Shown here: one piece after another, positions 9,825 through 64,000 of the stretch
Position numbering within the stretch: the first letter of the stretch is position 1
How the letters are laid out: every line of letters starts with the position of its first letter
Assembly (NCBI GenBank): GCA_016935335.1
Contig: JAFGRE010000129.1
Span: 3,403-67,402, forward strand
Length of the DNA: 64,000 bases
Source of the DNA: Deltaproteobacteria bacterium
GTDB lineage: Bacteria > Desulfobacterota > WTBG01 > JAGOGO01
Reading direction: 5' to 3'
Translations under genes and position numbers: made by a program
Notes under the pieces: generated by a model
Told to the model about the DNA's origin: nothing
The model's database searches: none
What the model saw: only the letters and a program-made list of their open reading frames with translations

Positions 9825-9838
9825 GGTGAGAGGCAATT

Positions 9839-10477: not shown

Positions 10478-10500
10478 CTGCCAAGAAAGACTAGTCGCTG

Positions 10501-40860: not shown

Positions 40861-41232
40861 ATGGCAAAAATATTAATCGTTGATGACGATCAAGATTTTG
40901 TTGAGGCAATTTCGATCGTCTTAAAATCCAATGGATATGAAGTGGCTTCGGCAAATTCAAGGGCAGCGGGAATGGAGGCTGTTAAAAAAGAATCCCCTGA
41001 TCTTATTGTGCTTGATGTCATGTTGGAACAGCCGGACGACGGATTTACCATGGCCCAGGACCTCAGGAGGCAGGGTACCGGCACCCCCATCCTCATGTTA
41101 ACAAGCGTGGGTAAAATATCAGGCATGGTTTACGACAAGGATCCGGAAATGGTTCCCGTTGATGCCTTTGAAGAAAAGCCCATCCAACCTGACAAACTGC
41201 TTGCCAAAGTGAAAGAACTTCTTAGTGAATAA
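40861..41232 (+). CDS. Stand-alone response regulator receiver (CheY-like) protein
   Basis: 123 aa; REC domain with acidic pocket (DDD), phospho-acceptor Asp in LIVLDVML, and a conserved Lys region; no output domain. Confidence 0.85.
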   Translation: MAKILIVDDDQDFVEAISIVLKSNGYEVASANSRAAGMEAVKKESPDLIVLDVMLEQPDDGFTMAQDLRRQGTGTPILMLTSVGKISGMVYDKDPEMVPVDAFEEKPIQPDKLLAKVKELLSE

Positions 41233-41246
41233 AAAGGGGGTTAACT

Positions 41247-42950: not shown

Positions 42951-42962
42951 GGAGGTCCGACA

Positions 42963-44900: not shown

Positions 44901-44976
44901 TATTCTTACCAGCGAAAACAGCCAAGACGGCAGGGTAATCAGTTTCAGTGAAAAAAATTGCAGCGTAAATTCTAGC

Positions 44977-45019
44977 GTAAGGGCAATTCCTGGGAATAAG
45001 GATTTGCCCTTACCTTTTT
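44977..45019 (+). terminator. Rho-independent terminator after hydA
   Basis: Perfect 10 bp inverted repeat GTAAGGGCAA ... TTGCCCTTAC (44977-44986 / 45004-45013) followed by CTTTTTC. A TATAAT box at about 45025-45030 precedes hydG. Confidence 0.6.
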
Positions 45020-45114
45020 CAACGACTATAATAAAATAAAAGTGCGTTTCCGATCTGATATAACAATGCGTCGCGTCGTGCGTCCGAATCGAACTGTAAT
45101 GGCGAGAAACCCGA

Positions 45115-46527: not shown

Positions 46528-46614
46528 GCTGAAACCACCATCACCCTTTCCTTTACCCTGACTGATCGACACACCACCTGAAGGCGATTGCGCGTTAGAC
46601 AGGAAGGACGGATC

Positions 46615-48060: not shown

Positions 48061-49285
48061 AGGGCTGAGGCTCCATATTGGTCTTTTCGGACGGAGAAAT
48101 GTCGGAAAATCCAGTCTGCTGAACGCCGTCACCCGGCAGGATGTCTCCATTGTTTCCGATCATGCCGGTACAACGACCGACCCCGTTGAGAAACCCATGG
48201 AGCTGCTGCCCCTCGGCCCGGTACTTTTTATCGACACCGCCGGTATTGATGATGTCGGTGCATTAGGAGAAATGCGAATTGCCAAAACCCGAGGGGTAAT
48301 CGACCGAACCGATCTGGGAGTTATAATCAGTGACGCCGGGATCTGGGGCGATTTCGAAGAACAGATATGGGGAGAATTGAAAAAACGGAATATCCCCATG
48401 ATCGCTGTTTTCAACAAAACCGATCTGGAGGAGCCGGATAGCACTATCCTAACCCGGCTGGAACAGGAAAAGATCGCCATCGTAAAAACCGTAGCTGTTT
48501 CAGGCAAAGGAGTTCTGGACTTTCGCCAGGCGCTTCTCGACACGGTTCCTCCCGAATTCTTAACAAACCCCGATCTCCTGGGAGATATTGTGGGACCCGG
48601 GGAACTGGCGGTTCTGGTTGTTCCCATAGACAAGGAAGCGCCCAAGGGAAGGCTCATCGTGCCGCAGGTTCAGGCTATTCGGAACCTTCTGGACAATGAT
48701 GCGTACTGTATGGTTGTCAAAGAGCGAGAACTCAAATATGCGCTGGAGCGACTGACGGAACCTCCCACACTGGTGGTGACCGATTCACAGGCATTTTTAA
48801 AAGTGGCGGCAGATACGCCGCCGGGTATCAAGATGACCTCTTTTTCAATTCTTTTTGCCCGCATGCAAGGTGACCTGAACGAGATGGTGAGAGGCGCCTT
48901 GGCAATTGAGACGCTCAAGACAGGAGATCATGTATTAGTGGCTGAAGCCTGTTCACACCATCCAATTGCCGACGATATTGGTCGAGTCAAAATCCCTCGA
49001 TGGCTAACGCAGTATGTGGGAGGAAAAGTCCATTTTTATCAAATCCAAGGACACGATTTCCCTGAAGACCTCTCGCCGTATAAGCTCGTTATTCACTGCG
49101 GCGCCTGCATGTGGAACCGCCGAGAAATGCTGTCGCGTATTTTATATTGTCGGAATGCTAAGATTCCCATCACCAACTACGGTTTGACGATCGCTTATGC
49201 CCTTGGTATCTTCGAACGCGCACTTCAACCGTTTCCCGCAGCTTTAGAGGTGTATCATCAGACCCAAAATGATGTCCTTGCCTAA
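48038..49285 (+). CDS. hydF: [FeFe] hydrogenase H-cluster maturation GTPase HydF
   Basis: 415 aa; GTPase G1 GRRNVGKSS and G2/G3 motifs; C-terminal FeS-binding CxH ... HCxxC (CSHHP ... HCGAC). Confidence 0.85.
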   Translation: MQQQSTRKGLRLHIGLFGRRNVGKSSLLNAVTRQDVSIVSDHAGTTTDPVEKPMELLPLGPVLFIDTAGIDDVGALGEMRIAKTRGVIDRTDLGVIISDAGIWGDFEEQIWGELKKRNIPMIAVFNKTDLEEPDSTILTRLEQEKIAIVKTVAVSGKGVLDFRQALLDTVPPEFLTNPDLLGDIVGPGELAVLVVPIDKEAPKGRLIVPQVQAIRNLLDNDAYCMVVKERELKYALERLTEPPTLVVTDSQAFLKVAADTPPGIKMTSFSILFARMQGDLNEMVRGALAIETLKTGDHVLVAEACSHHPIADDIGRVKIPRWLTQYVGGKVHFYQIQGHDFPEDLSPYKLVIHCGACMWNRREMLSRILYCRNAKIPITNYGLTIAYALGIFERALQPFPAALEVYHQTQNDVLA

Positions 49286-50402
49286 TGCGCTTACCCGAGA
49301 AGAAATCATCCGCTGGCTTCATGAGAAAAATGAAGAAAAGCTCCATCAGCTTTGGCAGTGGGCTGATGAGATTAGAACAAGCGTTGTGGGTGATGAAGTT
49401 CATCTCAGAGGCCTCATCGAAATCTCGAATCACTGTTCACGTCGTTGCAGCTACTGTGGAATTAACGCGGGTAACACCTCCCTTGTCCGCTATCGAATGG
49501 AGAAGCAGGAAATCATGGACTGTGTCGACATGGCACAAAAGTTCGGGTATGGCACCGTGGTGATACAAGGCGGCGAAGATTACGGAATAAAAAAAGAGTG
49601 GATGGACGATATCATTCGTGATATTAAATCTCGAACGGACTTGGCAGTTACTCTCAGCCTTGGTGAGCGTCCCATCGACGATCTCGAGATGTGGAGGGCG
49701 GCTGGTGCCAATCGCTACCTGCTCCGCTTTGAAACCTCAGATCGAACGCTCTATGAAAAAATTCACCCTTCCATGAAATCTACAATTTTCGACAGGGTTG
49801 AGATGTTGCGCACCTTGAGAAACATCGGGTATGAAATTGGTGGCGGAATCATGGTGGGAATCCCTGGGCAAACATATGTCTCCGTCTATAATGATTTATG
49901 CACCTTTCAGGAAATGGATCTTGACATGATCGGCGTGGGGCCATATCTCCCCCATCCTCATACGCCCCTTGGAACAGAGGGGGAAGAAATCCGGAAACAA
50001 ACCCCGGACCAAATAGCCAATACCGAGCTTATGACATGTAAGGTCGTGGCCTTGACACGGATTCTCTGTCCGGAAGCCAATATCCCCAGTACTACGGCTC
50101 TCGGAACCATCGACAGACAACTCGGTCGTGTTCATGGCCTCCAAAGAGGCGCTAATGTTCTTATGCCCAATATAACCCCGTTGCACTATCGAAAGTTATA
50201 TGAGATTTATCCGGAAAAGGCTGGAAACGATAGCACTCCCGCGGAGACCGACCAACTGCTCAAGGAGTTGATTGCAGGCCTTGGCAGAAGACGGGGGAAA
50301 GGCCCCGGGGGAAGGTTGCATACTCCCCATCGATCGGAAGAAGACTCCCGGGGATTGCCCGGAATCCATAAACGTATGAGGGGGAGGACCTTGATCACCT
50401 GA
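49269..50402 (+). CDS. hydE: [FeFe] hydrogenase H-cluster radical SAM maturase HydE
   Basis: 377 aa; BioB-like; CX3CX2C (CSRRCSYC); overlaps hydF by 17 nt; unusual basic Gly/Arg-rich C-terminal tail of about 35 aa. Confidence 0.8.
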   Translation: MMSLPNALTREEIIRWLHEKNEEKLHQLWQWADEIRTSVVGDEVHLRGLIEISNHCSRRCSYCGINAGNTSLVRYRMEKQEIMDCVDMAQKFGYGTVVIQGGEDYGIKKEWMDDIIRDIKSRTDLAVTLSLGERPIDDLEMWRAAGANRYLLRFETSDRTLYEKIHPSMKSTIFDRVEMLRTLRNIGYEIGGGIMVGIPGQTYVSVYNDLCTFQEMDLDMIGVGPYLPHPHTPLGTEGEEIRKQTPDQIANTELMTCKVVALTRILCPEANIPSTTALGTIDRQLGRVHGLQRGANVLMPNITPLHYRKLYEIYPEKAGNDSTPAETDQLLKELIAGLGRRRGKGPGGRLHTPHRSEEDSRGLPGIHKRMRGRTLIT

Positions 50403-50449: not shown

Positions 50450-52321
50450 TTGAGAAAAAAGGATAGTGTTTTTATGGACCAAACTGACTCCACTCTTCTT
50501 CCGGTGGAAGAAGAACTAAGAAACCGATTATCCCGTCTCATTAAGCTGCGATGGGTAGCGCTGGAGTGCATCGTCATTGCCATTCTGTTCACCGAGTACT
50601 CCCTCCGTATTCCTCTCCCCACAAAAGAACTCTACAGCATTACTTTAGGAATCTTCTTATACAATACCTTTTTTTTCTTATTTCTTCATACTATCGAAGA
50701 AAAGGGGTCCCCGGTATTAATTCCGCGATTTGCTTTAGTCCAGATCCTTGTCGATTGGTTGGCACTTACTCTCTTCATTCATTACACTGGCGGCATAGAA
50801 AGCCCGGTTATTCTTTTCTTTTTTTTCCATGCGATTCTCTCTATTATTTTACTTCCCACCCAACTCTTTTACTTTCTCTCCACCGTGGGTATCGCTCTGA
50901 TGACGGCCTTGGCGATTTTAGAATACCAGGGAACAATCAGCCATATTACCATTTCCGCATTCGTTTCCGGTCCACGCCATCAGAATCCGATGTTTGTTGT
51001 CGGCATGCTCTTCTTTTTTGCGACCGCTCTCTATGTGTCGACCTATCTTTCAACGGCGATTATTAAAAGATTACGCCTGCGGGACAAAGATCTTATCGAT
51101 CTATTGGAAGACAAAAGACGGGCTTTTGAACGGATTCAAACTCTATACGATTTGAGTTACAAAATGTCCTCAACCTTGGATATAACGGAGATATTAGATC
51201 TGGCGGCACGAGGAACCGTCGAAGTTCTCAATGTCAAAGGCTGTTCTATCAGTGTATTGGATCCTACGCGAAAAAAATATAAGGTAAGCGGAGCCTATGG
51301 TTTGAGCGATACCTATCTCCAGAAAGGTCAACTTGACGTAACAAAGAGTCTTCCTGATGTGCTGAAGGGGAAAGTGGTGTTTGTCCCCGACGTCACTAAC
51401 GATCCCAGACTTCAGTATCCCGAAGAGACCAAGCGGGAGGGGATAGCTTCAATCCTCGGAATTCCCTTGATATTCAAGGGGGAAGTGATCGGGTCCTTGA
51501 GAATACACTCCGCCGAACCGAAGAATTATACCAAGGAAGAACTCGAGTTTATCAATGCCATTGCTAACACGATGAGCCTAGCGATCGCCAACGCCATGGC
51601 TTATAACAAATTGATAGAGTTCGACAAAGCACGATCACGCTTTATGAATATGGTGGCCCATGAGATGAGGGCTCCGGTCGGAGCCATTCAGAATATGCTG
51701 CAAGTTATTCTCAATGGGTACGTGGGGGAAATCACCCCTAAACAACAAGAACTCCTTGGTCGTGCTGAGGCTCGAACCTATTCTTTCCTGGCTATGATAA
51801 ACGATCTTCTCGATCTGGGAAGTCACGAAGCCGAACTCGAAGTCTACACCTTCAGTGATGTATGCCTCCAAGATATCCTGAGCAAGGTTCTGGATTTCCT
51901 GGAAGTACAGATAAGGAATAAGAACCTCACAGTGAAGGTCGAAAAACCTGATGGCCCTCTCGTCGTGAGCGAGGTTGGCGACGATATGGAAAAACTGTTT
52001 ACCAATCTCATCGGAAACGCCATCAAATACTCTCCGTCGAACGGAACCGTTTCGGTCGGTATATCCGTTGACAACGGGATAATAAAAATCGTGATCGCTG
52101 ATACCGGCATCGGCATTATTCTGGAAGACATCCCGCATATTTTCGATGAGTTCTTTCGAGCGAAAAACGCTCGCTTGCTTGAAAAAGAGGGGACAGGCTT
52201 AGGACTCACCATCGTAAAGCGAATCGTAGACCGCTATGACGGCAAAATCTACGTGGACAGCGAACCTGAGAAGGGAACAACCTTCACAGTAATAATCCCC
52301 CAGAATAAATCTCAGCGTTGA
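50450..52321 (+). CDS. Membrane-bound sensor histidine kinase with GAF domain
   Basis: 623 aa. N-terminal polytopic membrane region (about 6 transmembrane helices), then a GAF domain. HisKA H-box MVAHEMRAP and HATPase_c N/G boxes (GNAIKYS, DTGIGI, GTGLGL) complete the kinase. Confidence 0.85.
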   Translation: MRKKDSVFMDQTDSTLLPVEEELRNRLSRLIKLRWVALECIVIAILFTEYSLRIPLPTKELYSITLGIFLYNTFFFLFLHTIEEKGSPVLIPRFALVQILVDWLALTLFIHYTGGIESPVILFFFFHAILSIILLPTQLFYFLSTVGIALMTALAILEYQGTISHITISAFVSGPRHQNPMFVVGMLFFFATALYVSTYLSTAIIKRLRLRDKDLIDLLEDKRRAFERIQTLYDLSYKMSSTLDITEILDLAARGTVEVLNVKGCSISVLDPTRKKYKVSGAYGLSDTYLQKGQLDVTKSLPDVLKGKVVFVPDVTNDPRLQYPEETKREGIASILGIPLIFKGEVIGSLRIHSAEPKNYTKEELEFINAIANTMSLAIANAMAYNKLIEFDKARSRFMNMVAHEMRAPVGAIQNMLQVILNGYVGEITPKQQELLGRAEARTYSFLAMINDLLDLGSHEAELEVYTFSDVCLQDILSKVLDFLEVQIRNKNLTVKVEKPDGPLVVSEVGDDMEKLFTNLIGNAIKYSPSNGTVSVGISVDNGIIKIVIADTGIGIILEDIPHIFDEFFRAKNARLLEKEGTGLGLTIVKRIVDRYDGKIYVDSEPEKGTTFTVIIPQNKSQR

Positions 52322-52391: not shown

Positions 52392-52997
52392 CTATTCTGG
52401 CGAAGCTTCCGCTGTCCGGGGAACAACCGCATCTTCTCCTGAAAGAAGCTCAACCAAGCAGTCAATGCTTCTTTTCACCCGCCGGGAAAAACCCTGCACA
52501 AAACCGACCCGCTCAGGTTGAATCGCCACCACCACGGTTTTGCTTCCGCTTTGTTCCCATAAGGTGAGAAGGCTCTTGAGAGGCAGCCGATGGGTAGAAC
52601 ATAAGAGGGATTTCGGAAGGTCTTGGACGCTCAGCACGGCGATGCTGCCCGGCTCAGCCTGAAGATCAACAGCGTCCACCGCAATAATCACCTTCGGTTT
52701 GAGATCCAGAATCCGTACGAACCAGTCTTCCGGCGATTCGCCCGCATCCACAAAGATCCGTTCCCCTTCCACAGGGAACTGCCCCACCTGCTTTTGCCAT
52801 CGTTCATTCAGTTGCCCGGCGACTTCGGGTCCGACCCCGTCATCCTCACGGAGCCGGTTGCCGATGCCGAGAACGACCACCCGTCCCGGATATCCTGGAT
52901 GAACGAGAGCGGCAAGCGATTCCAAGGTCAGCAGAGCGTCTTCCTTCCTGGTCATATTGGTCCAAATTTGGGAATTATACCTGACTCGAGCGAACAA
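52392..52997 (-). CDS. [NiFe] hydrogenase maturation endopeptidase (HycI/HyaD family)
   Basis: VVVLGIGNRLREDDGVGPEVA and IIAVDAVD motifs of the HycI/HybD protease family. The true start is probably the internal ATG at about 52955. Confidence 0.75.
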   Translation of the reverse strand: MFARVRYNSQIWTNMTRKEDALLTLESLAALVHPGYPGRVVVLGIGNRLREDDGVGPEVAGQLNERWQKQVGQFPVEGERIFVDAGESPEDWFVRILDLKPKVIIAVDAVDLQAEPGSIAVLSVQDLPKSLLCSTHRLPLKSLLTLWEQSGSKTVVVAIQPERVGFVQGFSRRVKRSIDCLVELLSGEDAVVPRTAEASPE

Positions 52998-53924
52998 CTA
53001 CCGGGGTACGCCCGACTCATGAGAAGCATCGAAAGGCGCAGAAAAAAGTCCGTATGACACCAGGAGGTCTTCAAATTCACGATAGTCATCCGCTGAGGCA
53101 GGAGCAAAGCCGGAAATTCTCAAACGTTCAAGGATAAAACGATGCGAAGCGTTCCCAAGGTCGAGTTGAAGTAAAGCGGTTTTCACGTTTCTCACCAGAT
53201 CCGAATCAGCATCCGGGAAGCTGACAAAGCACGGATTGGGATAATACTGCGTGATCGCAAGCACCGTAACGTTTGGCACCGCTCCCTTTGCTTTCGTAAG
53301 GGCCTGGAGAACGTCTTCTCGGACGAAGCCGACCTCCGCTTGACCCAACGCTATTTTCTCAAAGATCTCCTCTTGGGTATCTCCGAATATGAATTTCACA
53401 TCCCGTTCCGGTTCCAGACCGCATTCCTTAAGATGCATCCATTGAGCAAGAAATCCGCACACATTTGAACGAGAGGAAGCAAGAACCGACTTCCCTCGCA
53501 GGTCGTTAATTGATCCTATCGGACTTTTAGGATGGATGATGATCAAACCCCGGTATTCGGTTCGGCCATCAAGCGAGACTGCTTTAACCAGGGGGACCGC
53601 TCCGTACTGCATTTTGAGAATAAGGTAATAATACGGGTTCACCAGGGAAAGAGCAAACCGTTCCGTTTCCACAAGAGAAGTCAATGATTCCATTTCAGGC
53701 GGAGCACAGACCATATCCATTTCCCAGCTGGTTTCTTTCGTCAAATAATCCATCAGAAAAATAAACCGCGCCTCCATCATGAGGAAGGAAAACGGCCCCG
53801 GATGCACAAGGATTTTTGCTTTTCCGCGAACGGGTGAGATTGGCTCACAGCCGACTGACCCGAAAATCACCGCGGCAATGAGAATGCATAGAAGCAACTG
53901 GCAGGCAAATAAACACCTTCTCAT
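52998..53924 (-). CDS. Periplasmic substrate-binding lipoprotein (PhnD/SsuA-like PBP fold) encoded inside the hydrogenase operon
   Basis: 308 aa; signal peptide with lipobox (VIFGSVGC); PBP type 2-like pattern. Start overlaps the NuoB-like stop by 4 nt and the stop abuts the hycI start. Confidence 0.5.
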   Translation of the reverse strand: MRRCLFACQLLLCILIAAVIFGSVGCEPISPVRGKAKILVHPGPFSFLMMEARFIFLMDYLTKETSWEMDMVCAPPEMESLTSLVETERFALSLVNPYYYLILKMQYGAVPLVKAVSLDGRTEYRGLIIIHPKSPIGSINDLRGKSVLASSRSNVCGFLAQWMHLKECGLEPERDVKFIFGDTQEEIFEKIALGQAEVGFVREDVLQALTKAKGAVPNVTVLAITQYYPNPCFVSFPDADSDLVRNVKTALLQLDLGNASHRFILERLRISGFAPASADDYREFEDLLVSYGLFSAPFDASHESGVPR

Positions 53925-54430
53925 TTATATTCCCTTTGGGCTTGCTCGAATTTTTTCAGTATTTCTTCAGGATGGCTTTGGGTCATGGTTATGGGAGCAA
54001 CCTTTTTGGAAGCAAGACCCAACGCCACCGCAACGCCATAAAGAATTGCCTCCGGCCGGGGTGGGCAACCTGGGATGAAATAATCTACCGGAAGCACTGT
54101 ATCCAACCCACCCAGCGTGGCGTAACTGTCAAAAAATACGTTACCCCCGGTCGGGCAACTGCCGATTGCAAACACCAGCTTTGGATTGGGGACAGCTTCG
54201 TAAACCCGCCGAAGGGCCGGGGCTATCTGCCGGGTCACCGGTCCGGAGACCAAGAGCACGTCGGCATGGCGGGGAGAGCCAACCAACTTGATTCCGAATC
54301 GCTCAGCGTCATAATAAGGCGTAAGAACATTGATGACCTCAATGTCACAGCCGTTACAGGCGCCCGCATTGACATGGTATACCCACAGAGATTTAGGAAA
54401 TGCCTTTGCACACAGTTTCTTGAGCATCAT
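53921..54430 (-). CDS. Group 4 [NiFe] hydrogenase small subunit (NuoB/HycG/HyfI-like)
   Basis: 169 aa; proximal 4Fe-4S ligands CNGCD, GSCPTGG, PGCPP. Confidence 0.85.
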   Translation of the reverse strand: MMLKKLCAKAFPKSLWVYHVNAGACNGCDIEVINVLTPYYDAERFGIKLVGSPRHADVLLVSGPVTRQIAPALRRVYEAVPNPKLVFAIGSCPTGGNVFFDSYATLGGLDTVLPVDYFIPGCPPRPEAILYGVAVALGLASKKVAPITMTQSHPEEILKKFEQAQREYK

Positions 54431-54436
54431 TCCTCC

Positions 54437-55927
54437 CTACGGCATCGCTACCATAGAAAAAATCGCTTTGGTAGCTTCGTATAACAAGGGATACAATATT
54501 TGTGGAAACACGCCGATGACAACACACAATAACGACAGAATCACCATCCCTCCCCACATTGCCGGCGGCACCTCCGTTATCTTTTTTTTGCTTAGGTTCT
54601 GAGGCAACGCGCCCATAAAAACGTTATACGAGGCATGAATAAAGGCTGCCAAGGTCAGTATGGCAACGAGGACGGCAATCACCGTCGCCCAGGCATGGCC
54701 GGCTTTTACCCCGGCCAAGAACAGCGTAAATTCACTCATGAACCCGTTAAACAAGGGGATACCGCCCAAAGCCAACGCTGCCACAAAAAACGTCAATCCG
54801 GTAAGAGGCATTACCTTCCCCAACCCTCCCAGTTCGGAGATGCGACGACTCCCAGTTGCATAAATGACACCGCCGAAGCTAAAAAAGGCCAAGGCCTTCA
54901 TCAAGGAATGGTTGACAAGGTGAAAGAGGGCCCCGTAAATTCCCAGGTAGTTCCCGAGGCCAAGACCCATGATAATAAAACCGATGCTCACGACCGAACA
55001 GAATGCCAGAAGCCTTTTCATATCTTCCTGAAAAAACATCATCAGCACACCCACAATCATAGTAATAACACCTAAGATAAGAACGAGAGGGCTGATGACG
55101 GGATAAAAGGGATACAGTATCAAAACGGTGCGGATTATGGCATAGACCCCTACCTTGATCATCACGCCCGAGAGAAGAGCGCTTACAGGAGTAGGGGCTT
55201 CGGCATGAGCATCCGGCAGCCAGGTGTGGAAAGGAACAATCCCCGCCTTGGTTCCAAAGCCGGCCAGCAAAAGAACAACCGATAACAGAGCAATGCTCTT
55301 GGGAATTTTACCGGCCACCTTGGCAATCTCGGTGATCTTGAGAGGATCAAGGCCGCTGGGGATATGCGGCGAGGAGCCAGCATACAGGAGGACGCACCCA
55401 AAAAGTGCAAACGTAATTCCCACCGTGAGCAGCATTGCATATTTATATCCCGCTTCCAACGCATCCCGGTTCCAGTAGAAGGCAACCAGGATTACCGAAG
55501 CCAGGGTGGTCGCCTCAATAATCACCCACAGCAAGATAATATTGTTGGTAGTAGAGGCCCAGAGCATGGAAGCCAAAAACAGCATGATCCAGCCGTAGTA
55601 GGAATGAAACCGTTCGCGAGGGATAACACCTCGTTCCGTCTCTTTCCGTATGTAGGGCAGAGAATAAACGACCGCGATCACTCCGAGAAAGGCGACCATT
55701 CCGGCAATCAATCCTCCCAAGGCATCCACTCGGAATTCCTCGCGAAAGAGAGACAAAATTTCCCCTTGGGTCGTCTGAATCAGGATCTTGCAGGAGACGA
55801 CAAATGTCAGAGCGGATCCGATGACAGCGCTTCGTTCAGCAAAAAGCCGGGATCGTTTTCCGACGAGGAAAATCAAGACCCCGGTGAGAGCTGGTATTAA
55901 AAAAAGGTACAGTATCTCAAGATTCAT
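54437..55927 (-). CDS. Membrane antiporter-like subunit (NuoN/NuoM / HyfF-HyfD family)
   Basis: 496 aa, about 14 transmembrane helices; complex I ND2/4/5 family pattern. Confidence 0.8.
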   Translation of the reverse strand: MNLEILYLFLIPALTGVLIFLVGKRSRLFAERSAVIGSALTFVVSCKILIQTTQGEILSLFREEFRVDALGGLIAGMVAFLGVIAVVYSLPYIRKETERGVIPRERFHSYYGWIMLFLASMLWASTTNNIILLWVIIEATTLASVILVAFYWNRDALEAGYKYAMLLTVGITFALFGCVLLYAGSSPHIPSGLDPLKITEIAKVAGKIPKSIALLSVVLLLAGFGTKAGIVPFHTWLPDAHAEAPTPVSALLSGVMIKVGVYAIIRTVLILYPFYPVISPLVLILGVITMIVGVLMMFFQEDMKRLLAFCSVVSIGFIIMGLGLGNYLGIYGALFHLVNHSLMKALAFFSFGGVIYATGSRRISELGGLGKVMPLTGLTFFVAALALGGIPLFNGFMSEFTLFLAGVKAGHAWATVIAVLVAILTLAAFIHASYNVFMGALPQNLSKKKITEVPPAMWGGMVILSLLCVVIGVFPQILYPLLYEATKAIFSMVAMP

Positions 55928-55951
55928 TTTGAGAACTCCTTAGTGTCACCA

Positions 55952-56617
55952 TCACCACCGTAAGCCCTTAAGCTGAAAGGTGTCGGTGGAGCCGAATTTT
56001 TGGTATACGCCAAAAATCACGTAAAGAAGAAGGTAGACCGCAATCACTACATCAGTAACAATGCCGATGATAGCCGTCTCCTTTAAGAGTGGAGACAAGC
56101 TGACGAGCGAGAGATGAACACCGTTTTCCAGTATAAGAAGGCCGTGAACGGTTTTAATGGCATCCCGCCTCACGAGGATGCAGTAAAGACCCATGACAAA
56201 GATGGTGAGACTCACGGCCAAGTTTGTTCGAAACGGTTCTTCGCTGGCGGCGGGGGTGGGAGCAATGAACTCCCCATACTGATGCGTCAGTCGGTAGAAT
56301 ATAATGACAATGACACTGATCAACAAAATCGACCCCAGGTATCCAATCAGGGGAGGGAACTCTCGATTCGTCGTCCGACGGATGTACCGCAAGAGAAGGT
56401 AAGGAATTACAACTACCTTGGTAATAAAGGCGGTAATCGCCCAGTAGTAGAGACCGGGATTTTGGTTCGCAAAGGCCACGAAAAGACTGCACATCAAGAC
56501 GGCCTGAAGCATGTAAGCATAAGCGGAATAGCGGAGGTTCCTGAGTTCAATAACCAAATATGAAGTAATGATAAGGGAAAGGCTTATTGTGGGAATATAC
56601 ATTGTCAATTGTTCCAT
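55952..56617 (-). CDS. Hydrogenase-4 component E-like membrane subunit (HyfE family)
   Basis: 221 aa polytopic membrane protein in the conserved position of Hyf-type operons. Confidence 0.6.
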   Translation of the reverse strand: MEQLTMYIPTISLSLIITSYLVIELRNLRYSAYAYMLQAVLMCSLFVAFANQNPGLYYWAITAFITKVVVIPYLLLRYIRRTTNREFPPLIGYLGSILLISVIVIIFYRLTHQYGEFIAPTPAASEEPFRTNLAVSLTIFVMGLYCILVRRDAIKTVHGLLILENGVHLSLVSLSPLLKETAIIGIVTDVVIAVYLLLYVIFGVYQKFGSTDTFQLKGLRW

Positions 56618-56671
56618 ACCACTGTGCCCTTCTTTGTTGGAGCATCGAACAGCTTATGAGGTCAAGCCATT

Positions 56672-57121
56672 CTATTTCCCTTCGCTTTGATTTCTGAATC
56701 CGGTCACCATCATCTTATCCAAGGGGCTTGCGGGCTTAAAACAACGACCGCAGCGACCGCACGGACCCATATAGAGTTCGGTCCGAATGTAGAGATCATC
56801 ATTGAGATTGGTGGCAAGTTGGTATTCGCGCGTCATGGCAATCGCATCCTCGGGACACACCTCGGCACATCGACCACAATAAGTGCAGCGTTTAAGGAAA
56901 TACTCAATAATTCGCTGAGGACCATCGTCAGTAATTTCAATCAAGCGGGCCGGGCAGACATTGGCACAGCCGCCACAGCCGATGCACTTCTCCACATCAA
57001 CCGCTATCTTACCCCGATACCAATCGCCGGGGGGATGCGGCTCCGGACCCAAGGGAAAAGCGGCCGTGACTCTCCCTGCCTTCAGACAAATCAATGCTTC
57101 CTTCAGTTTGCTCATAAACAT
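56672..57121 (-). CDS. 2x[4Fe-4S] ferredoxin subunit (NuoI/HycF/HyfH-like)
   Basis: 149 aa; two CxxCxxCxxxCP motifs (CIGCGGCANVCP, CTYCGRCAEVCP). Confidence 0.85.
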   Translation of the reverse strand: MFMSKLKEALICLKAGRVTAAFPLGPEPHPPGDWYRGKIAVDVEKCIGCGGCANVCPARLIEITDDGPQRIIEYFLKRCTYCGRCAEVCPEDAIAMTREYQLATNLNDDLYIRTELYMGPCGRCGRCFKPASPLDKMMVTGFRNQSEGK

Positions 57122-57138
57122 GATGGTTCACCCTTTCT

Positions 57139-58044
57139 TTAAACCCCGATCAGGGCAAAGGCGATTGCGAAAACAAGCACAACCCAGATCCCGATAAAGT
57201 ACCGAACCGCTTGGTCAATACGTATTCGAGGATTAACAGCATCAATCACACCGACCAATGCAATCACCACTAAAACCTTGACAAGATTAATGAGGATGTC
57301 AACAGGGATGACGCCGGTTTTGGGCCAGGGAATAAATACTTCGAGAAAAAGTGACGCCAAGATGATCTGCTTGGCAAAGTAGCTCCATTTGTATAAAGCC
57401 AACGAAGGCCCCCCCGCCTCTATGAAAGGCCCTCCCATGATTTCCTGATCGGCGTCGGGTATGTCAAAGGGAAGTTTGCCAAGCTGAACCTGGAGAACCA
57501 AGAAGAAGGGGATTGCGGCAATCACCATGGAAAGAACGGGACCGCTTTCTCGATACCAGGAAGAGATATGCATGAGGTCAAAAGAGTGGCTGTGAATAAC
57601 AGCGACGATAAGGCTGCCGACGACAATAATCTCCACAACCATGGCGAGCATCATTTCTCGTGCCGTTCCTAAAGCGCCGTAAGGATTCCCGGTGGAGGTG
57701 CCGCCCAGCATGATCCCTACCGAGGCCAGCGCAAGGAAATAGACAAGGACGATCAGATCGCCGGCAAAGCCCAGGGGGGGGCTTGCTCCCATAGGGGTAA
57801 GGAGAGCGGCAACCAAGACGCTTCCGAAGGTGAGAACCGGCGCGAAAGAGAAAAGGGGATTACCTCCTACCTCAAGCCGCTCCTTGCCGAGCAGCTTGAG
57901 GAGGTCAAGATAAGGTTGCCGAAGCGGGGGCCCCTTGCGGGAATGTACGACTGCTTTAAGTTTTCGAATTACTCCTTCATAGAACGGCGCGACAATAATC
58001 ACGAGAAGGAGATTGACTATTGCGAGGGAAATAGTGGTCGTCAT
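57139..58044 (-). CDS. Membrane subunit NuoH/HycD/HyfC-like
   Basis: 301 aa; complex I subunit 1 family; 8 transmembrane helices; 4 nt overlap with the large subunit. Confidence 0.85.
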   Translation of the reverse strand: MTTTISLAIVNLLLVIIVAPFYEGVIRKLKAVVHSRKGPPLRQPYLDLLKLLGKERLEVGGNPLFSFAPVLTFGSVLVAALLTPMGASPPLGFAGDLIVLVYFLALASVGIMLGGTSTGNPYGALGTAREMMLAMVVEIIVVGSLIVAVIHSHSFDLMHISSWYRESGPVLSMVIAAIPFFLVLQVQLGKLPFDIPDADQEIMGGPFIEAGGPSLALYKWSYFAKQIILASLFLEVFIPWPKTGVIPVDILINLVKVLVVIALVGVIDAVNPRIRIDQAVRYFIGIWVVLVFAIAFALIGV

Positions 58045-59732
58045 TTTCTGTTTATCGTTTTCTCCCGGCTCAGTTCCGTTAATTCTTCATTGGTATAAAT
58101 CCGGATTGCGCCTCTTTTCCGATCCACCACCTCCAGCCGTTCGGTACAGGAGAAGCAGGGATCGTAACTCGCTATCGATATGGGCACGTCAGCCAGTTCC
58201 TGCCCCATGATCATGGCCGGCACCGAAGCCAGATTCATGTAACTGGGCGCTCGGACCTTCCATCGATAGGGGCGGTTGTTTTCTCCCGTAAGAACATAGT
58301 GGACCGATTCTCCCCGAGGGGCCTCTACAACCCGTACGCCCTCCTTTCCCGGGGGAATCTCTTCGGGGATGTTTGCCATAATCGATCCGTCGGGGAGTTC
58401 TTGAACCCCCTGACGGACTAGACGAATCGATTCCAGTGTCTCCTCCAGGCGAACAAGAGTCCGGGCCAGGTTATCGCACCCCTTCTGGACTTTCTTTTCC
58501 GGAACCAGATAATCATACGCACAGTAAGGATGATCAACCCGCGAATCAATCGCCACGCCGGAACCTCGGGCGGTCGGCCCGGTGACACAATAGTCCACAG
58601 CATCAGCATGGGAGAGCACTCCGACGCCCTCAAGGCGCATCATGAGGGGAGTATCTCCTTGAATTGCGTCGATGACCTTGAGCCACTCTTTTTCAATCCG
58701 ATCAACCACCTCCAGGATCTTTGGTTTCTGCGCAGCAGTAATATCCCGGCGCACACCGCCGATCAAGTTCATGCCGTAAGTTTTCCGATTCCCGGTAATT
58801 TCCTCACAAAGCCACATAACCGGCTCTCGAATGCGCCAGGTCTGCATCAACACGGTATCGAATCCCAGGACATGACCGCCTATTCCCAACCAAAGGAGAT
58901 GAGAGTGAATCCGCTCCAGTTCGAGCAGAACGCTTCGAATATATCTCGCTCGGATGGGAACCTCAATTTCAGCAGCTTCTTCTATGGCCTCACAGTAACA
59001 CGTACTGTGTATATATCCTCATATGCCTCATATGCGCTCGGCCAGAAATGAGGTTTGATTGTAGGTGAGGGCTGAATCCCCTATTTTTTCAATACCCCGA
59101 TGGCTGTAGAAGCCACGATAATCACAACCGACGACGGTCTCCCCTTCTACAAATACACGAAAGACCGCCGGTTCCTCCAGGACCGGGAAGAACGGCCCAA
59201 TGGGAATCACCGTGGCGTTCTCCGGCGGGGCAAGCGGTTTCGGCGCAAGCCCTTCCACGGGCTCAGGACGACGGTCATAGGAGAAATCCTTCCGCAAAGG
59301 ATAGACATTGTCCGGCCAATCATCCGGAAGAATCAAACGGCGCGGATCAATGTGACCATTAAAGGTGATACCAACCAGATCCCGAACTTCCCGCTCGATC
59401 CAATTAGCTCCGGGGATTATCGGGGTCAGGGAGTCAATCTCGGGAGTATCCTTATCCAACGATGCTTGAAGCAACAGAAAAATCCTCTCCGCATCGAAGG
59501 AAAAGATATACGTCGTCTGAAAGTCCCGATGCGTAGGCCGTCGATCAACCCCGACGATGGTATTAAATCGAGCCCCCATCCCCCGGAACAGATATTCCGC
59601 CAATGTTCGAATGCGTTCGCGACGGATGTCCGCATAAATAGTCCGGGGCACCGGCTCCCGGGCGGAGATAATATCCGTCGGGAACTTGGCCTTCAGATCA
59701 TCGATCAAACTCCTGCCGATCTCAAAAACCAT
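58041..59732 (-). CDS. Fused NuoC/NuoD-like [NiFe] hydrogenase large subunit (HycE/HyfG-like) with two in-frame TGA codons, putative selenocysteines, at both Cys positions of the N-terminal RxCGxC Ni-binding motif
   Basis: ORF-track ORFs 59028..59732 and 58041..58889 are in the same frame; only two TGA codons lie between them. Minus-strand codons 59030-59028 and 59021-59019 read AERI-TGA-GI-TGA-GYIHSTCYCEAIEEAAEIEVP, which aligns with the HycE-type AERICGICGxxHSTAYC motif. C-terminal Ni ligands DPCFSC are intact. NuoC-like domain sits at the N-terminus. AAGGAGAG ribosome-binding site before the ATG at 59732. Confidence 0.6.
58991..59009 (-). other. Candidate bacterial SECIS-like hairpin downstream of the two UGA codons
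   Basis: mRNA CACAGUA-CGUGU-UACUGUG: 7 bp perfect stem, 5 nt loop containing GU. It begins 9 nt after the second UGA and 18 nt after the first, a spacing compatible with SelB-dependent decoding. Confidence 0.4.
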
Positions 59733-59818
59733 TGTGTACTCTCCTTTTTTTTAGGGGCCTCTCTAAGTACCAAGCCATTGGTTACCTTTTACTCCTTCCA
59801 TGGGTGTTGAACATTTGT

Positions 59819-61870
59819 TTACATGAGCGTTAACCAGACAATAACCGCCACTACCAGGATAAACCCGATCACCTGAAAAAGCATATACACTTGAGGAATT
59901 CCTACATGAGTTCTCCGGAACATCTCGGAAAACCGAAGCATGGCAGTAACGAGGGGATAAAATAGTACCTTGTCAAAGTCTATTCCCCTGTAAATCCGCT
60001 CCGGTTTCTTCAGATGAATCGGGGGGGCCTCCCAGGAAACCAAGCGTTCGAAATGAGACGCCAACGGGAGGTAGAAGCTTTGAGCGCGGTATCGCACTTC
60101 GTCGGTATCGTACACCTCCCCGCAATTCCATATCGGAACCGACCGACTTTCCGGTGATCCCACCCGGGAGATGATAACCGCAACCATGAGACACCCACCA
60201 AAGACCAGGAGCCCCATAAGCGGAAACCAGACACCCGCTTGGACTCCTCCCATCATGGGAATCAAGCCAATTTCCGACATGCCGAAGACGGATGAAAGGT
60301 GGGGAAGGGAATTTCCGTAAAGTGAACCGGTAAGGCCGGCGTGAATCATCTGTAAAGGGATCCACGGAAAGAGACCAAGGAGCACGCAAAGAAGTGCAAA
60401 TATATTCTGAGGAATCCGCATGGTGTATGGAACATCAAGACCGGGCCGTAAGCTGGTTTCCAATTCGCTGCCCATCTCCCCCCCAAAGCATGTGCCGAAA
60501 AACTTGATGAAGTATGCAATCGTTACAGTACTGATAAAAATTGCCACTACCCCGAAAAGAATAAACACCGGAACGCTGATTCCTCCAATTATGGTTGTTT
60601 GATAGATCAGCCACTTGCTCACAAACCCGTTAAACGGCGGCATTCCCGCGATTGACAACGCAGCTATGAGCGTAACCCAGGCAGTCAGCGGCATAACGGA
60701 ATAAAGGCCGCTCAGTCGGTTCAAATCTCGAGTACCCGTCTTATAAAGAATCGCCCCGGCATTTAGAAAAAGGAGCCCTTTAAAAACAGCATGGTTCACC
60801 AGGTGATACATGCCGGCCATGGTAGCCACCACCGAAAGGAGCGGGTTGATTTCATAAAATGCCAATCCGGTACCGATACCCAAAAGGATGTATCCCATCT
60901 GGCCGATTGACGAAAACGCCAGCAAGCGCTTGAAGTCATGCTGCAAAAGGGCGGAAACAGTGCCCATAAACAAGGATACTGCCCCACATGCAGCGATCAC
61001 AATGCCCCACGCAAACGTGTGCGTTGAAACCGGCAAGAGGAAGAAGAAAAACCGGACGAATCCATAGACACCCATCTTGATCATAACTCCGGAGAGCATT
61101 GCCGAAACTCCCGAAGGCGCGGCCGGATGAGCATCTGGAAGCCATCCTCCCACCGGATACATACCGGCCTTGGTGCCGAAGCCGAGGACGAACAGTCCCA
61201 GGACAAATGAGAGTTGAACCGGATGGGCCTCGACCATTCCCGAGAGAGCCTCCCGCAAAGCGGCAAAGGCAAAGGAACCAACCCGTGTTTGGAGAAGGAT
61301 CGCTCCGATGAACATGGCGGCCGTTCCCACATGGGTCATGATGAAGTACTTGAGGCCGGCCCTGAGGACGACCTGATCCTCTTTTTCATAAATTACCAGG
61401 AAGTAAGACGTAAGAGTCATAAACTCCCAGAAAACAAAAAAGAAGAACATGTCGGAAACCGAAACCACCCCAACCATCCCGGCGATGAACAGTATAAGGC
61501 AATGATAGAACCGGGCGATGCCCTGTGACGGATAGAGGTCCATATATCGAAAGGAGTAGAGCGTGCCCGCAAAGGAGACCAAACCAATAATAACCAAAAA
61601 AAGGGCGCTGAGATAATCCACCGATACCGTCAACTCCGCTCCCAGAGACGGGATCACCATAAGCGGCTTCGAAAGATTGCGGGGGCCTCCCGTAAAGACC
61701 CGATAGGCAACACAGAAAAGGATCCCTGACATAATGGTAACCGTACCAACCCCAATGGTACCGCACAGTCGCCGGGAGCGCCTGGTCAGCGCCGTAAGAA
61801 TCAACCCAAGGATAATCGTGGCAGCAAAAAGGGTTATCATAAACACCGTCGTTCCCCCTTTAAAAATCAA
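59819..61870 (-). CDS. Large antiporter-like membrane subunit (NuoL/MrpA/HyfB family)
   Basis: 683 aa, about 16-18 transmembrane helices; ND5/NuoL-type pattern. Confidence 0.8.
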   Translation of the reverse strand: MIFKGGTTVFMITLFAATIILGLILTALTRRSRRLCGTIGVGTVTIMSGILFCVAYRVFTGGPRNLSKPLMVIPSLGAELTVSVDYLSALFLVIIGLVSFAGTLYSFRYMDLYPSQGIARFYHCLILFIAGMVGVVSVSDMFFFFVFWEFMTLTSYFLVIYEKEDQVVLRAGLKYFIMTHVGTAAMFIGAILLQTRVGSFAFAALREALSGMVEAHPVQLSFVLGLFVLGFGTKAGMYPVGGWLPDAHPAAPSGVSAMLSGVMIKMGVYGFVRFFFFLLPVSTHTFAWGIVIAACGAVSLFMGTVSALLQHDFKRLLAFSSIGQMGYILLGIGTGLAFYEINPLLSVVATMAGMYHLVNHAVFKGLLFLNAGAILYKTGTRDLNRLSGLYSVMPLTAWVTLIAALSIAGMPPFNGFVSKWLIYQTTIIGGISVPVFILFGVVAIFISTVTIAYFIKFFGTCFGGEMGSELETSLRPGLDVPYTMRIPQNIFALLCVLLGLFPWIPLQMIHAGLTGSLYGNSLPHLSSVFGMSEIGLIPMMGGVQAGVWFPLMGLLVFGGCLMVAVIISRVGSPESRSVPIWNCGEVYDTDEVRYRAQSFYLPLASHFERLVSWEAPPIHLKKPERIYRGIDFDKVLFYPLVTAMLRFSEMFRRTHVGIPQVYMLFQVIGFILVVAVIVWLTLM

Positions 61871-61912
61871 AACAAACTTCGCACCTCATCGTCCGCTTCC
61901 CTCCTGGCTTTT

Positions 61913-63427
61913 TTACCTGACCCCTTCCAAGAAAGGGATCCCCAATAAAGGAGCTGCCAAGGTCAGGATCACCAAAGCCCCCAGTACCAGCTTGATAGCA
62001 AAGGGAAATGCAAACGTTTCACCGGCTTCACGCGGTTCACCGAAAAAGACCCGCTGGGTCACAACAATAAACCAAATGAAAGCGCCGACGGATTCTCCCA
62101 AAACCAGGATGCCCAAAATAACCCCGAAGGTTGACCGAAGCTCAAAGGCTCCCACCACAATGAAAAACTTGCTCCAGAAACACGAGAAGGGCGGGATGCC
62201 GGTTACCGATAAAACGCCGGTTATAAACGCTCCTGCCAAAAGCGGAGAGCTTCCGGCAAGGCCGGATAATCGGGAGATGAGGCGTGTGCCGGCGGCATAG
62301 GAGATCGCGCCGACCGACAAAAAGAGAAGCGTCTTGGCGAACGCGTGACAGAGCAGATGCAGCAAACCGCCCCGGAGCCCTACCAGTGACCCGGCCGCCC
62401 CGAGGCCCAATCCCAAGAAGATATACCCCACGTTGGAGATGGTGGAGTAGGCCAAAAGCCGCTTCAAGTCATCTTGCACGAAGTAAAAAACAAGCCCCAT
62501 AAACATTGTTATAATGGCAACAGTGGCGGTCAGGAGTCCGATTCCGCTCCCCACTTCAAAACCTGCCGTAAATACCCGGGCGATCAGAAAAGCCCCGGCC
62601 TTCACCATTGCCGCCGCGTGAAGATATGCTGAAATGGGAGTGGGCGCCACCATGGCGTCAGGTATCCAGGTATAAAAGGGTCCCTGCGCTGACTTAGCCC
62701 AGCCCGCCAGAAGCAGGCAGATCAGAACCATGACTTTTATGGTACCCGGGAGTCTGCCGATACTGGCAAACTCGAAACTGCTGGTATACACAAAAATAAA
62801 CGCCAGCCCAACGATAAAAAAGAGGCCCGGAATGTGGGTCATCAGAAGCGCCTTAAAACCGGAACGAAACGATGTTTCATCTTCATAAAAGGCAATGAGG
62901 GCGGCAGAACAAATGGTGGTGAGTTCCCAGAAAATCAAAAACTGGAGGAGATTGGGCGAAAGCGCGAGTCCGATCATCGAAAAGATGAAGAACAGCAGCC
63001 ATGCATAGTATCGAACGAATCCCGATGTCACCGGATGTTCACGGTTTTTGCTGCTCAGGTACCCATTGGAAAAGAAAACCACCAGAAAACCGATAACCAC
63101 GGTGACGACCAACATCAACACGGAGAGGGGATCGAGGACCGCTCCGAAGAGCTTCGACTCGGTCCTGATCCACGGCATCCGGCCGAAGAGGAAGAACGCG
63201 GGAGGTTTTCCCAGGCTTTGTACAATAACTCCTCCTGCAGCCACCAGCGTGGCGAGCGCCGATAACGATGCCAGCCGGCTTGCCCGTTCACCCTGAAAGC
63301 ACGAGGGAAATCCTGTCAGGAGAAGAAGAACGCCTGCCAGCGGAAGAAGAAACACCAACGCAAGCCAAACTGTCATACTGTTGCTCCCGTTCCGTGTTGC
63401 CGATTCCCAATGCGGACAGACCGTCAC
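61913..63427 (-). CDS. Second antiporter-like membrane subunit (NuoL/NuoM / HyfB-HyfD family)
   Basis: 504 aa polytopic membrane protein. The true start is probably the ATG at about 63377 (MTVWLALVFLL). Confidence 0.75.
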   Translation of the reverse strand: MTVCPHWESATRNGSNSMTVWLALVFLLPLAGVLLLLTGFPSCFQGERASRLASLSALATLVAAGGVIVQSLGKPPAFFLFGRMPWIRTESKLFGAVLDPLSVLMLVVTVVIGFLVVFFSNGYLSSKNREHPVTSGFVRYYAWLLFFIFSMIGLALSPNLLQFLIFWELTTICSAALIAFYEDETSFRSGFKALLMTHIPGLFFIVGLAFIFVYTSSFEFASIGRLPGTIKVMVLICLLLAGWAKSAQGPFYTWIPDAMVAPTPISAYLHAAAMVKAGAFLIARVFTAGFEVGSGIGLLTATVAIITMFMGLVFYFVQDDLKRLLAYSTISNVGYIFLGLGLGAAGSLVGLRGGLLHLLCHAFAKTLLFLSVGAISYAAGTRLISRLSGLAGSSPLLAGAFITGVLSVTGIPPFSCFWSKFFIVVGAFELRSTFGVILGILVLGESVGAFIWFIVVTQRVFFGEPREAGETFAFPFAIKLVLGALVILTLAAPLLGIPFLEGVR

Positions 63428-63448
63428 GATGCTGCCGTTACTGCGAGG

Positions 63449-64000
63449 TCAGACCACCCGCTCCGGCAACTTCATCATTTCCCGATAGGAAAAAACCGGT
63501 CCGTCCAGACATACATACTTGTGCCCGATAGCACAGTGCCCGCACTTTCCGACACCGCACTTCATGTATCGCTCCAAGGTGGAGATAATGTTCGCGGGGG
63601 CGAAGCCGAGACGCAGCAGTTCCATGATGGCAAACCGTATCATGATGGGCGGCCCGCAAACAAAGGCTACGGTGTTGTCGACAATGATGTCAGCTTTCGG
63701 GAAAATGGTCGTCACCACCCCCACATTCCCGGACCAACCTGAATCACCCACGTCAACCGTCATCATGAACCGAACGTCCTGCATCGTTTCCCATTCTTTG
63801 AGACGGTTTTTATACACGAGATCGGCCGGACTCCGGGCACCATAAAGAATCTGAACGTCTCCGAATTCCGACCGGGCATCGAGCATCGGTTCAATCAGCG
63901 AGCGGAGGGGAGGAAGGCCGATGCCCCCGGCCACGAAAAGAACGTTCTTCCCCTTGATCTCGTCAAAGGGAAAACCGTTTCCGAAGGGACCGCGCACACC
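63449..64000 (-). CDS. FAD/NAD(P)-binding oxidoreductase subunit with C-terminal 2Fe-2S cluster (PyrK / sulfide dehydrogenase SudB / hydrogenase gamma-subunit-like). The 5' end lies outside the window.
   Basis: C-terminal 182 aa visible; NAD-binding GGIGLPP motif; 2Fe-2S Cys cluster CGVGKCGHC...C typical of the PyrK family. Only 21 nt separate it from the next gene. Confidence 0.75.
   Translation of the reverse strand, partial: GVRGPFGNGFPFDEIKGKNVLFVAGGIGLPPLRSLIEPMLDARSEFGDVQILYGARSPADLVYKNRLKEWETMQDVRFMMTVDVGDSGWSGNVGVVTTIFPKADIIVDNTVAFVCGPPIMIRFAIMELLRLGFAPANIISTLERYMKCGVGKCGHCAIGHKYVCLDGPVFSYREMMKLPERVV

Follow-up and report, generated by a model that had tools for sequence, protein, structure and literature searches.

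Two questions are raised by the locus described here: from which donor its hydrogenase takes electrons, and how a catalytic subunit whose gene is interrupted by two stop codons can be made. The locus lies in a 64,000-nucleotide stretch of contig JAFGRE010000129.1 (hereafter, the window), whose minus strand carries at 52392-64000 a tight gene array that forms the distal 11.6 kb of a hydrogenase operon. An initial annotation of this DNA had described a Hyf/Hyc-type operon headed by a PyrK-like flavoprotein gene, and had suggested an NAD(P)H-linked hydrogenase. In our analysis, the locus probably encodes a membrane-bound, ion-translocating, NAD(P)H-linked Group 4 hydrogenase that resembles the Hyf and formate hydrogenlyase (FHL) complexes and is of the UXXU-type [NiFeSe] kind of Group 4b, a label that is taken from the description of matching gene clusters by Takano, Inoue, Aono, Ochi and Mihara (Front Microbiol 2026;17:1925269, PMC13582414, September 2026), with HycE giving 425 bits and Mbh 266 bits among solved structures. 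Gene identities were assigned by Pfam and NCBIfam profile searches, and structural relatives were taken from matches in the PDB.

The catalytic large subunit is a NuoC-NuoD fusion of the HycE/HyfG type with 563 codons (58041..59732, minus strand), on which the Pfam families Complex1_30kDa, Complex1_49kDa and NiFeSe_Hases were recognized. Its gene, read from 59732 to 58041, is one continuous frame interrupted by two TGA codons, giving the read-through translation ...FLAERI(UGA)GI(UGA)GYIHSTCYC.... As read from the DNA, the first in-frame UGA (59028..59030) takes the place of the terminal Ni-ligand Cys (C1), and the second (59019..59021) that of the Ni-Fe bridging Cys (C2). The best structural relative was Escherichia coli HycE (7z0s_E, 4e-126), where both Cys of RVCGICGFAHS are aligned with the UGAs and DPCYSC is aligned with DPCFSC of the window protein. 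The metal-ligand motifs of Group 4 were accordingly found as N-terminal ERI-U-GI-U-GYIH, with both Cys positions being UGA-encoded, and C-terminal DPCFSC. The latter is followed by a 31-residue extension after TER, that is, beyond SCTER, which together with the HycI protease gene provides the maturation features of this group. The U-x-x-U active-site motif is the most unusual feature of the locus and was overlooked in the initial annotation. Because of the two in-frame TGAs, gene callers split the subunit: it appears as same-frame pieces of 234 aa and 282 aa in the list of open reading frames (ORFs) of the window, and as 234 aa and 268 aa among the genes predicted on an independently assembled contig. 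The window's fragment of the subunit is deposited as MBN2467872.1 in NCBI nr, which was also the source mined by Takano et al., and full-length Cys-type homologues of the subunit share at most 64% identity with it. The two UGAs were also seen to belong to a perfect tandem repeat of 9 nt, CATATGAGG CATATGAGG (59019-59036, minus strand; I-U-G I-U-G), which mirrors the repeated peptide of the motif (ICG-ICG), encoded both times by the same codons.

Such a split gene is also what a pseudogene or a sequencing error would give, in which case the two stops would render the large subunit inactive, with an unrelated flavoprotein gene next to it. The independent Logan assembly of SRR13394437 however contained both TGAs at identical positions, and in approximately 60 loci from several phyla these two positions were occupied by the same codons, the flanking frames being intact. 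The hairpin described below is conserved as well, and the flavoprotein gene retained its synteny with the hydrogenase genes in all relatives examined. On the strength of the independent assembly, the hairpin contrast and the ~60 loci with the same codons, we regard this explanation as effectively refuted. A genome-wide reassignment of UGA was also rejected, because TGA serves as the ordinary stop for 20 of the 57 long ORFs of the window.

The recurrence of the interrupted gene was evident when the N-terminal fragment (234 aa) was used as a query: dozens of the 120 database clusters listed had lengths of 231-237 aa. All 28 of the short clusters that were aligned (47-77% identity) stop exactly at ...AERI or ...AERICGI. 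Fragments ending in ...ERICGI, which stop at the second codon position only, are numerous in the databases. The sources of the short clusters include Desulfobacterota, Armatimonadota, KSB1, Planctomycetota and other groups. All four codon states (CC, UU, UC and CU) occur among 80 loci of GTDB species genomes: Cys/Cys at codon 1/codon 2 in 65 loci, TGA/TGA in 13 loci (three of them copies of the window locus), TGA/Cys in 1 locus and Cys/TGA in 2 loci. The closest GTDB locus is 73% identical, the species of the window not being a GTDB representative. When a degenerate DNA pattern for ERI-TGA-GI-TGA-G was applied to Joint Genome Institute (JGI) metagenomes, 50 contigs were obtained, 46 of which carry true UXXU large subunits, each with a hairpin. 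The TGA at the first position is shared with 12 other GTDB-species loci (one of them UXXC) and 46 metagenome contigs.

Downstream of the UGAs, RNA folding gave a hairpin of the selenocysteine insertion sequence (SECIS) type, CACAGUA-CGUGU-UACUGUG (58991..59009, minus strand), which encodes HSTCYC(E) and begins 9 nt past the second UGA and 18 nt past the first. The codons CAC AGT ACG TGT TAC TGT, or a paired variant of them, were present in every UGA-type locus with the synonymous sites frozen, whereas the same sites vary freely in the Cys-type loci. At least 6 of the 7 stem pairs were formed in 14/14 UGA-type loci vs 4/65 Cys-type loci (Fisher 2.5e-12, the loci being not phylogenetically independent). 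The G at position 2 of the hairpin loop CGUGU is the third base of Thr ACG, which matches the conserved G reported for Group 4b SECIS elements (PMC13582414). Rfam gave no SECIS or other family, either at a permissive threshold around the UGAs or at the gathering threshold across the whole window. A UXXU sub-lineage of five metagenome contigs (L093, L100, L110, L118 and L120) was found to have a re-registered stem, GCAGU-AGUU-ACUGC, in which HSSSYCQ replaces HSTCYC and a G is still located at loop position 2. This variant may help in building a future SECIS covariance model.

A locus of this kind, including its U-x-x-U feature, has already been described in silico by Takano et al. (PMC13582414), and our results agree with that work point by point. 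They reported 47 Sec-containing Group 4 large subunits with selenocysteine (Sec) confined to the N-terminal motif (27 with CXXU, 4 with UXXC and 16 with UXXU), the Group 4b UXXU types being from Armatimonadota, Desulfobacterota, JAPLJL01 and Acidobacteriota. The window locus shares with these the N-terminal U-x-x-U, the Cys-only C-terminal motif, the loop G from Thr ACG, and the genes for the large, small, HyfE-like, HyfC-like, antiporter, ferredoxin-type and SHI-gamma subunits, where SHI denotes sulfhydrogenase I; its relatives also belong to Desulfobacterota and JAPLJL01. Their clusters pair formate dehydrogenase (Fdh)-like proteins that lack the Mo ligand with SHI-gamma and SHI-beta homologues; of these three, SHI-gamma is in the window and the other two would lie off-window, being present in 12/12 loci of its clade that have sufficient upstream DNA. 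No substantive difference was found, except that the in-cluster PhnD-like lipoprotein gene and hycI are unmentioned in PMC13582414. The present locus adds an independent confirmation and a much larger census, in which 46 metagenome contigs and dozens of clusters of truncated proteins compare with 47 published sequences, and it offers a clean, complete operon tail that is clonable for biochemistry.

The second question, that of the electron donor, concerns the gene at the upstream edge of the array (63449..64000, minus strand; stop TGA 63451-63449). It encodes the C-terminal 183 aa of a flavoprotein of the SHI-gamma/AsrB type with FAD, NAD(P)H and [2Fe-2S] binding, the gene being partial. The domain set of SHI-gamma, AsrB and PyrK proteins was recognized in it, namely PF00175 (NAD_binding_1, 5.7e-16) and PF10418 (DHODB_Fe-S_bind, 1.9e-11) with the motif CGVGKCGHC...C. 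It is 77-81% identical to full-length homologues of 275-282 aa (L005-L009, L011 and L057), in which the FAD domain (PF00970) is present; for the window gene this domain falls off-window. The best PDB match was the gamma subunit of Pyrococcus furiosus sulfhydrogenase 1 (9nez_C, 1e-39), compared with 2e-16 for PyrK. The initial assignment as a PyrK-like FAD/NAD(P) flavoprotein is thus retained in the sense of a hydrogenase-gamma-like NAD(P)H module, and PyrK proper is rejected. The NCBIfam hydrogenase-gamma and AsrB families matched it below their equivalog cutoffs, so that a distinct subfamily is indicated.

The upstream neighbours of the flavoprotein gene were examined in relatives. An exact 51-mer from the window end gave no match in the JGI metagenomes, and an exact-protein look-up led to a 16.4-kb Logan contig that ends before the window edge. 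In the ~70% clade of the window, all 12 loci with sufficient upstream DNA (L005-L009, L011, L057, L101, L107, L112, L124 and L130) have the triad Fdh-like > SHI-beta-like > SHI-gamma-like. The order then continues as (antiporter A) > antiporter B > large subunit > NuoH > NuoI > HyfE > antiporter C > small subunit > (lipoprotein) > HycI. The same Fdh-like/SHI-beta/SHI-gamma triad was found in most Cys-type relatives. It had been claimed that the flavoprotein replaces formate-dehydrogenase or ferredoxin input modules; this does not hold, as Fdh-like and SHI-beta-like genes lie directly upstream in 12/12 clade loci. The statement that no such module is visible is true within the window, but only since the window stops inside the flavoprotein gene, and the absence of a formate or ferredoxin input module is a window-edge artefact.

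The upstream Fdh-like protein could make the complex a conventional FHL, in which a competent FdhF located beyond the window end feeds the hydrogenase and the flavoprotein is an accessory; finding fdhF upstream was named in the initial annotation as a result that would refute its reading. An Fdh-family gene is indeed upstream in all relatives, which counts only half against that reading because the protein carries substitutions at the key positions. Tblastn column mapping showed that in 7/7 nearest genome relatives, which have SHI-gamma beside the antiporter genes, Gly/Ser replaces the Mo-ligand Cys/Sec and Gly/Ala replaces the catalytic His; in L005, for example, NVDGTYRFGGA is aligned where Thermoanaerobacter kivui FdhF and F420-dependent formate dehydrogenase have NVDHCARL(C/U)HA. 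No FdhF with the Mo ligand and the catalytic His was found in the window. An fdhD gene is present elsewhere in the window (26576-27439), and a true FdhF (CARL-C/U-H) was detected in the more distant loci L018, L031, L036, L038, L039, L050, L055 and L075. Loci with a true FdhF are however generally without SHI-beta/gamma; the exception is L014, whose SHI-gamma-like gene has a different position, upstream of the Fdh gene. Furthermore, no multi-[4Fe-4S] subunit of the HycB/HyfA type is encoded in 52392-64000 or in the clusters of the relatives, the latter having a SHI-beta/AsrA-like protein instead. Judged by these sequences, the locus is probably not a conventional FHL, and we consider it very improbable that a competent FdhF drives it. 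Among the distant loci, the upstream FdhF is itself a genuine selenoprotein at L036:3036-3608, L055:7379-7957 and L075:16994-17587, its Mo-ligand codon being an in-frame TGA (HCARL(TGA)H or HCARV(TGA)H), and L036 combines Sec-FdhF with a UXXU hydrogenase as L050 combines Cys-FdhF with UXXU.

The Fdh-like protein of L005, with 580 aa, preserves the Cys motif for its N-terminal [4Fe-4S] cluster and a large part of the molybdopterin fold, and its gene is strictly conserved beside those of SHI-beta and SHI-gamma. Both features agree with the three-way coupling that Takano et al. proposed from AlphaFold models (PMC13582414). In such a confurcating or bifurcating complex, the Fdh-like subunit binds a third substrate, and the Fe-S network couples H+/H2, NADP+/NADPH and that substrate. 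The loss of the Mo-ligand Cys/Sec and of the catalytic His argues against such a role, and no site for flavin-based bifurcation is evident. The protein is also ~135 aa shorter than FdhF and matches NuoG (1.3e-38), whose part in complex I is that of a non-catalytic connector. Its sequence suggests an Fe-S connector of the NuoG type, not a formate dehydrogenase, and three-way coupling is a minority possibility in our estimate.

The best reading, an NAD(P)H-linked ion-translocating hydrogenase, follows from the degenerate Fdh-like protein of the relatives together with the SHI-gamma-type flavoprotein, and the initial proposal of such an enzyme in place of a conventional FHL is the best supported by these sequence features. 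The hydrogenase module itself is complete, having a large subunit with all four metal-ligand positions and the NuoB-like and NuoI-like di-cluster subunits. Beyond 64000, the operon would continue, as it does in all near relatives, with a polyferredoxin resembling SHI-beta and with an Fdh-like (NuoG-like) Fe-S subunit whose catalytic site is degenerate. Electrons from NAD(P)H would enter through FAD and [2Fe-2S] at the gamma subunit, and may then pass by the [4Fe-4S] clusters of the beta subunit and of the Fdh-like N-terminus to the NuoI-like subunit, the NuoB-like subunit and the Ni-Fe(Se) site. Evolution of H2 from NAD(P)H, or its oxidation with NAD(P)+, would be coupled to H+ or Na+ movement through the antiporter arm. 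Both UGAs are predicted to be decoded as Sec by SelB and tRNA-Sec by means of the single downstream SECIS, which would serve UGAs located 18 and 9 nt upstream of its stem. The resulting Ni site would then have one terminal and one bridging selenolate, which to our knowledge occur together in no characterised hydrogenase. If both are Sec, this chemistry would bear on O2 tolerance and on the H2-production bias. If the NAD(P)H link is true, the enzyme would represent a new route by which anaerobes link pyridine-nucleotide pools, H2 and membrane potential. Both proposals have been put forward before, in silico (PMC13582414).

Several points weigh against this interpretation. At standard potentials, H2 formation from NAD(P)H is an uphill reaction (~94 mV, ~18 kJ/mol); the arm may therefore drive H2 evolution with an ion gradient, or conserve energy in H2 oxidation. 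We know of no biochemically characterised member of the clade of the window. The window ends within the flavoprotein gene, and the genes upstream of it are predicted from its relatives. Covariation within the 14 UGA-type hairpins amounts to one compensatory pair, AGU>AGC with UAC>UGC in L065, which was equalled or exceeded by 42/500 shuffles. It is weak because the hairpin is nearly invariant, and the case for a SECIS is therefore made from the contrast of UGA-type with Cys-type loci. ARAGORN and profile searches found no selA, selB or selD, no tRNA-Sec and no other tRNA in the 64-kb window, so that the Sec machinery of this organism is presumed. In addition, tRNA-ReC, which may read UGA as Cys, is enriched in UXXU genomes, a caveat stated by Takano et al. 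(PMC13582414).

The last point leads to a different decoding, in which the SelB-dependent tRNA-ReC (SelC*) inserts Cys at the UGAs, leaving an ordinary [NiFe] or a single-Sec enzyme. Genes like that of tRNA-ReC were reported in ~56% of UXXU genomes vs ~2.3% of other Sec-type genomes, and in 2/6 Desulfobacterota UXXU genomes (PMC13582414). It is also unusual that one SECIS should serve two UGAs 6 nt apart. A single SECIS for both UGAs was tentatively concluded in PMC13582414 as well. On the other side, canonical SelC co-occurs in the UXXU genomes that bear tRNA-ReC, and genomes with a single UGA (CXXU or UXXC) seldom have tRNA-ReC (PMC13582414); such single-UGA lineages exist with the same hairpin. 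Cys decoding is consequently given a rather low probability, and decoding as Sec is the one adopted here.

The predicted complex can be compared with three other known systems. It shares with E. coli hydrogenase-4/FHL-2 (HyfABCDEFGHI) and FHL-1 (HycBCDEFG and FdhF; PDB 7Z0S/7Z0T) the NuoCD-fused large subunit, the NuoB-, NuoI- and NuoH-like subunits, HyfE and processing by HycI, and has three antiporter-like subunits as in Hyf. The locus differs from them by the lack of HycB/HyfA, the UGA codons for the N-terminal Cys pair, a lipoprotein gene within the operon, the added SHI-beta/gamma NAD(P)H module, and an Fdh partner (in relatives) without the Mo ligand. The gamma subunit of P. furiosus SHI (Group 3b; PDB 9NEZ), with FAD, NADPH and [2Fe-2S], resembles the flavoprotein, and a beta-type subunit is adjacent in the relatives; however, beta and gamma serve a soluble Group 3b enzyme in that organism, whereas here they are genetically attached to a membrane-bound Group 4 hydrogenase. 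The classical [NiFeSe] enzymes of Groups 1 and 3 (Desulfovibrio HysAB, Methanococcus Fru/Vhu) likewise have a Sec Ni ligand and a UGA with SECIS inside the large-subunit gene. In those enzymes a single Sec, serving as a terminal ligand, is part of the C-terminal motif (DPUxxC), in contrast to DPCFSC and UGA at both N-terminal positions in the present gene.

The remaining genes of the array, all on the minus strand, agreed in content and order with the initial annotation, each identity being borne out by Pfam and NCBIfam. Antiporter-like subunit A (NuoL/HyfB-like, 487 aa; 61913..63376) matched Proton_antipo_N and Proton_antipo_M (4.9e-57). Its maximal ORF opens at GTG 63427, but homology to L005 and the gene call on the independent Logan contig place the start at ATG 63376. 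The 21-nt gap to the flavoprotein gene that was noted initially depends on this upstream GTG; the gap is 72 nt from ATG 63376, which is still compatible with one operon. A promoter/terminator pattern scan detected no terminator-like site in these 72 nt, all of its matches lying within coding sequence. Antiporter-like subunit B (long NuoL/HyfB-like, 673 aa; 59819..61840, maximal ORF from TTG 61870) was likewise called as a gene on the Logan contig and gave Proton_antipo_N and Proton_antipo_M (7.2e-61), and subunit C (NuoN/HyfF-like; 54437..55927) gave Proton_antipo_M (1.2e-66). Three antiporter-like subunits in a Hyf-like complex were thereby confirmed, and reading of the sequences showed that A, B and C each retain the Glu of transmembrane helix (TM) 5 in a WE/IE motif and the Lys of TM7 and TM12.

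Between them are located the genes of the NuoH/HycD/HyfC-like membrane subunit (57139..58044; NADHdh 4.4e-53), the NuoI/HycF/HyfH-like 2x[4Fe-4S] subunit (56672..57121; Fer4 families, and NCBIfam hydrogenase 4 subunit H at 4.7e-29, below cutoff), and the HyfE-like membrane subunit (55952..56617; Oxidored_q2, and NCBIfam hydrogenase 4 membrane subunit at 1.1e-38). They are followed after subunit C by the NuoB/HycG-like small subunit (53921..54430; Oxidored_q6 3.8e-31), in which CNGC...GSCP...GCPP supplies 4 Cys for one [4Fe-4S], and the array is closed by the HycI-type large-subunit C-terminal endopeptidase (52392..52955, 187 aa; PF01750, TIGR00142 hycI 1.9e-26; maximal ORF from TTG 52997). The cluster thus contains PF01058, Fer4 families, PF00146, three PF00361 proteins and a HyfE-like protein, as is the case for Group 4. 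ATGA overlaps of 4 nt join the large-subunit stop to the NuoH start and the small-subunit stop to the lipoprotein start, and the gaps elsewhere are 6-86 nt.

The lipoprotein gene (52998..53924) encodes a substrate-binding-type protein of the PhnD/PtxB family (PF12974, 6.4e-43) with the lipobox GSVGC, and it matches PtxB (5o2j) at 1.4e-9. This in-cluster PhnD-family gene is the one element that we did not find in the literature. PF12974 genes were located inside the cluster in 18/63 GTDB loci from several phyla, where they either follow the small-subunit gene or immediately precede that of the large subunit (lipoprotein loci: L005, L006, L008-L011, L013, L014, L022, L028, L033, L034, L050, L053, L057, L062, L067, L068 and L112). 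The lipobox is kept in nearly all in-cluster copies, and no ATP-binding cassette (ABC) permease or ATPase gene was found nearby. Because of the 4-nt overlap, this recurrence and the lack of a nearby ABC partner, the protein may be a genuine periplasm-facing component, either a sensor or a subunit that binds oxyanions and docks on the membrane arm, and not the product of a passenger gene, but we hold this idea to be doubtful. The gene occurs in both Cys-type and UGA-type clusters, and a selenium-specific role was rejected for that reason. The top NCBIfam match, "putative selenate ABC transporter substrate-binding protein", was likewise set aside, reaching 48 bits against a cutoff of 250.

Adjoining the operon, an [FeFe]-hydrogenase cluster was found on the plus strand (40861-50402). 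It comprises a response regulator, a NuoE-NuoF fusion (HydB/C-like), HydA with a NuoG-like N-terminus, a radical-SAM/BATS protein (HydG-like), HydF and a radical-SAM protein (HydE-like), with a Lyase_1/FumaraseC_C (aspartase/fumarase-like) gene amid the maturase genes. Since this cluster is HydABC-like, two NAD(P)H-related hydrogenase systems stand side by side, and a link between NAD(P)H, H2 and the membrane is of relevance in what is probably a Desulfobacterota metagenome-assembled genome. Between the two clusters, a histidine kinase of GAF-HisKA-HATPase architecture, whose N-terminus is polytopic, is encoded at 50450-52321 (plus strand), convergent to hycI with ~70 nt from stop to stop, and it could regulate either of them. 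At 25308-27439 (minus strand), fdhD (FdhD/NarQ sulfurtransferase) adjoins a class-V aminotransferase gene (cysteine desulfurase-like), and its presence hints at an active formate dehydrogenase elsewhere in the genome. A complete type IV pilus block, pilM-pilN-pilO-pilP-pilQ, whose secretin has AMIN domains, is located at 8130-14111 (plus strand) and is unrelated to the hydrogenase.

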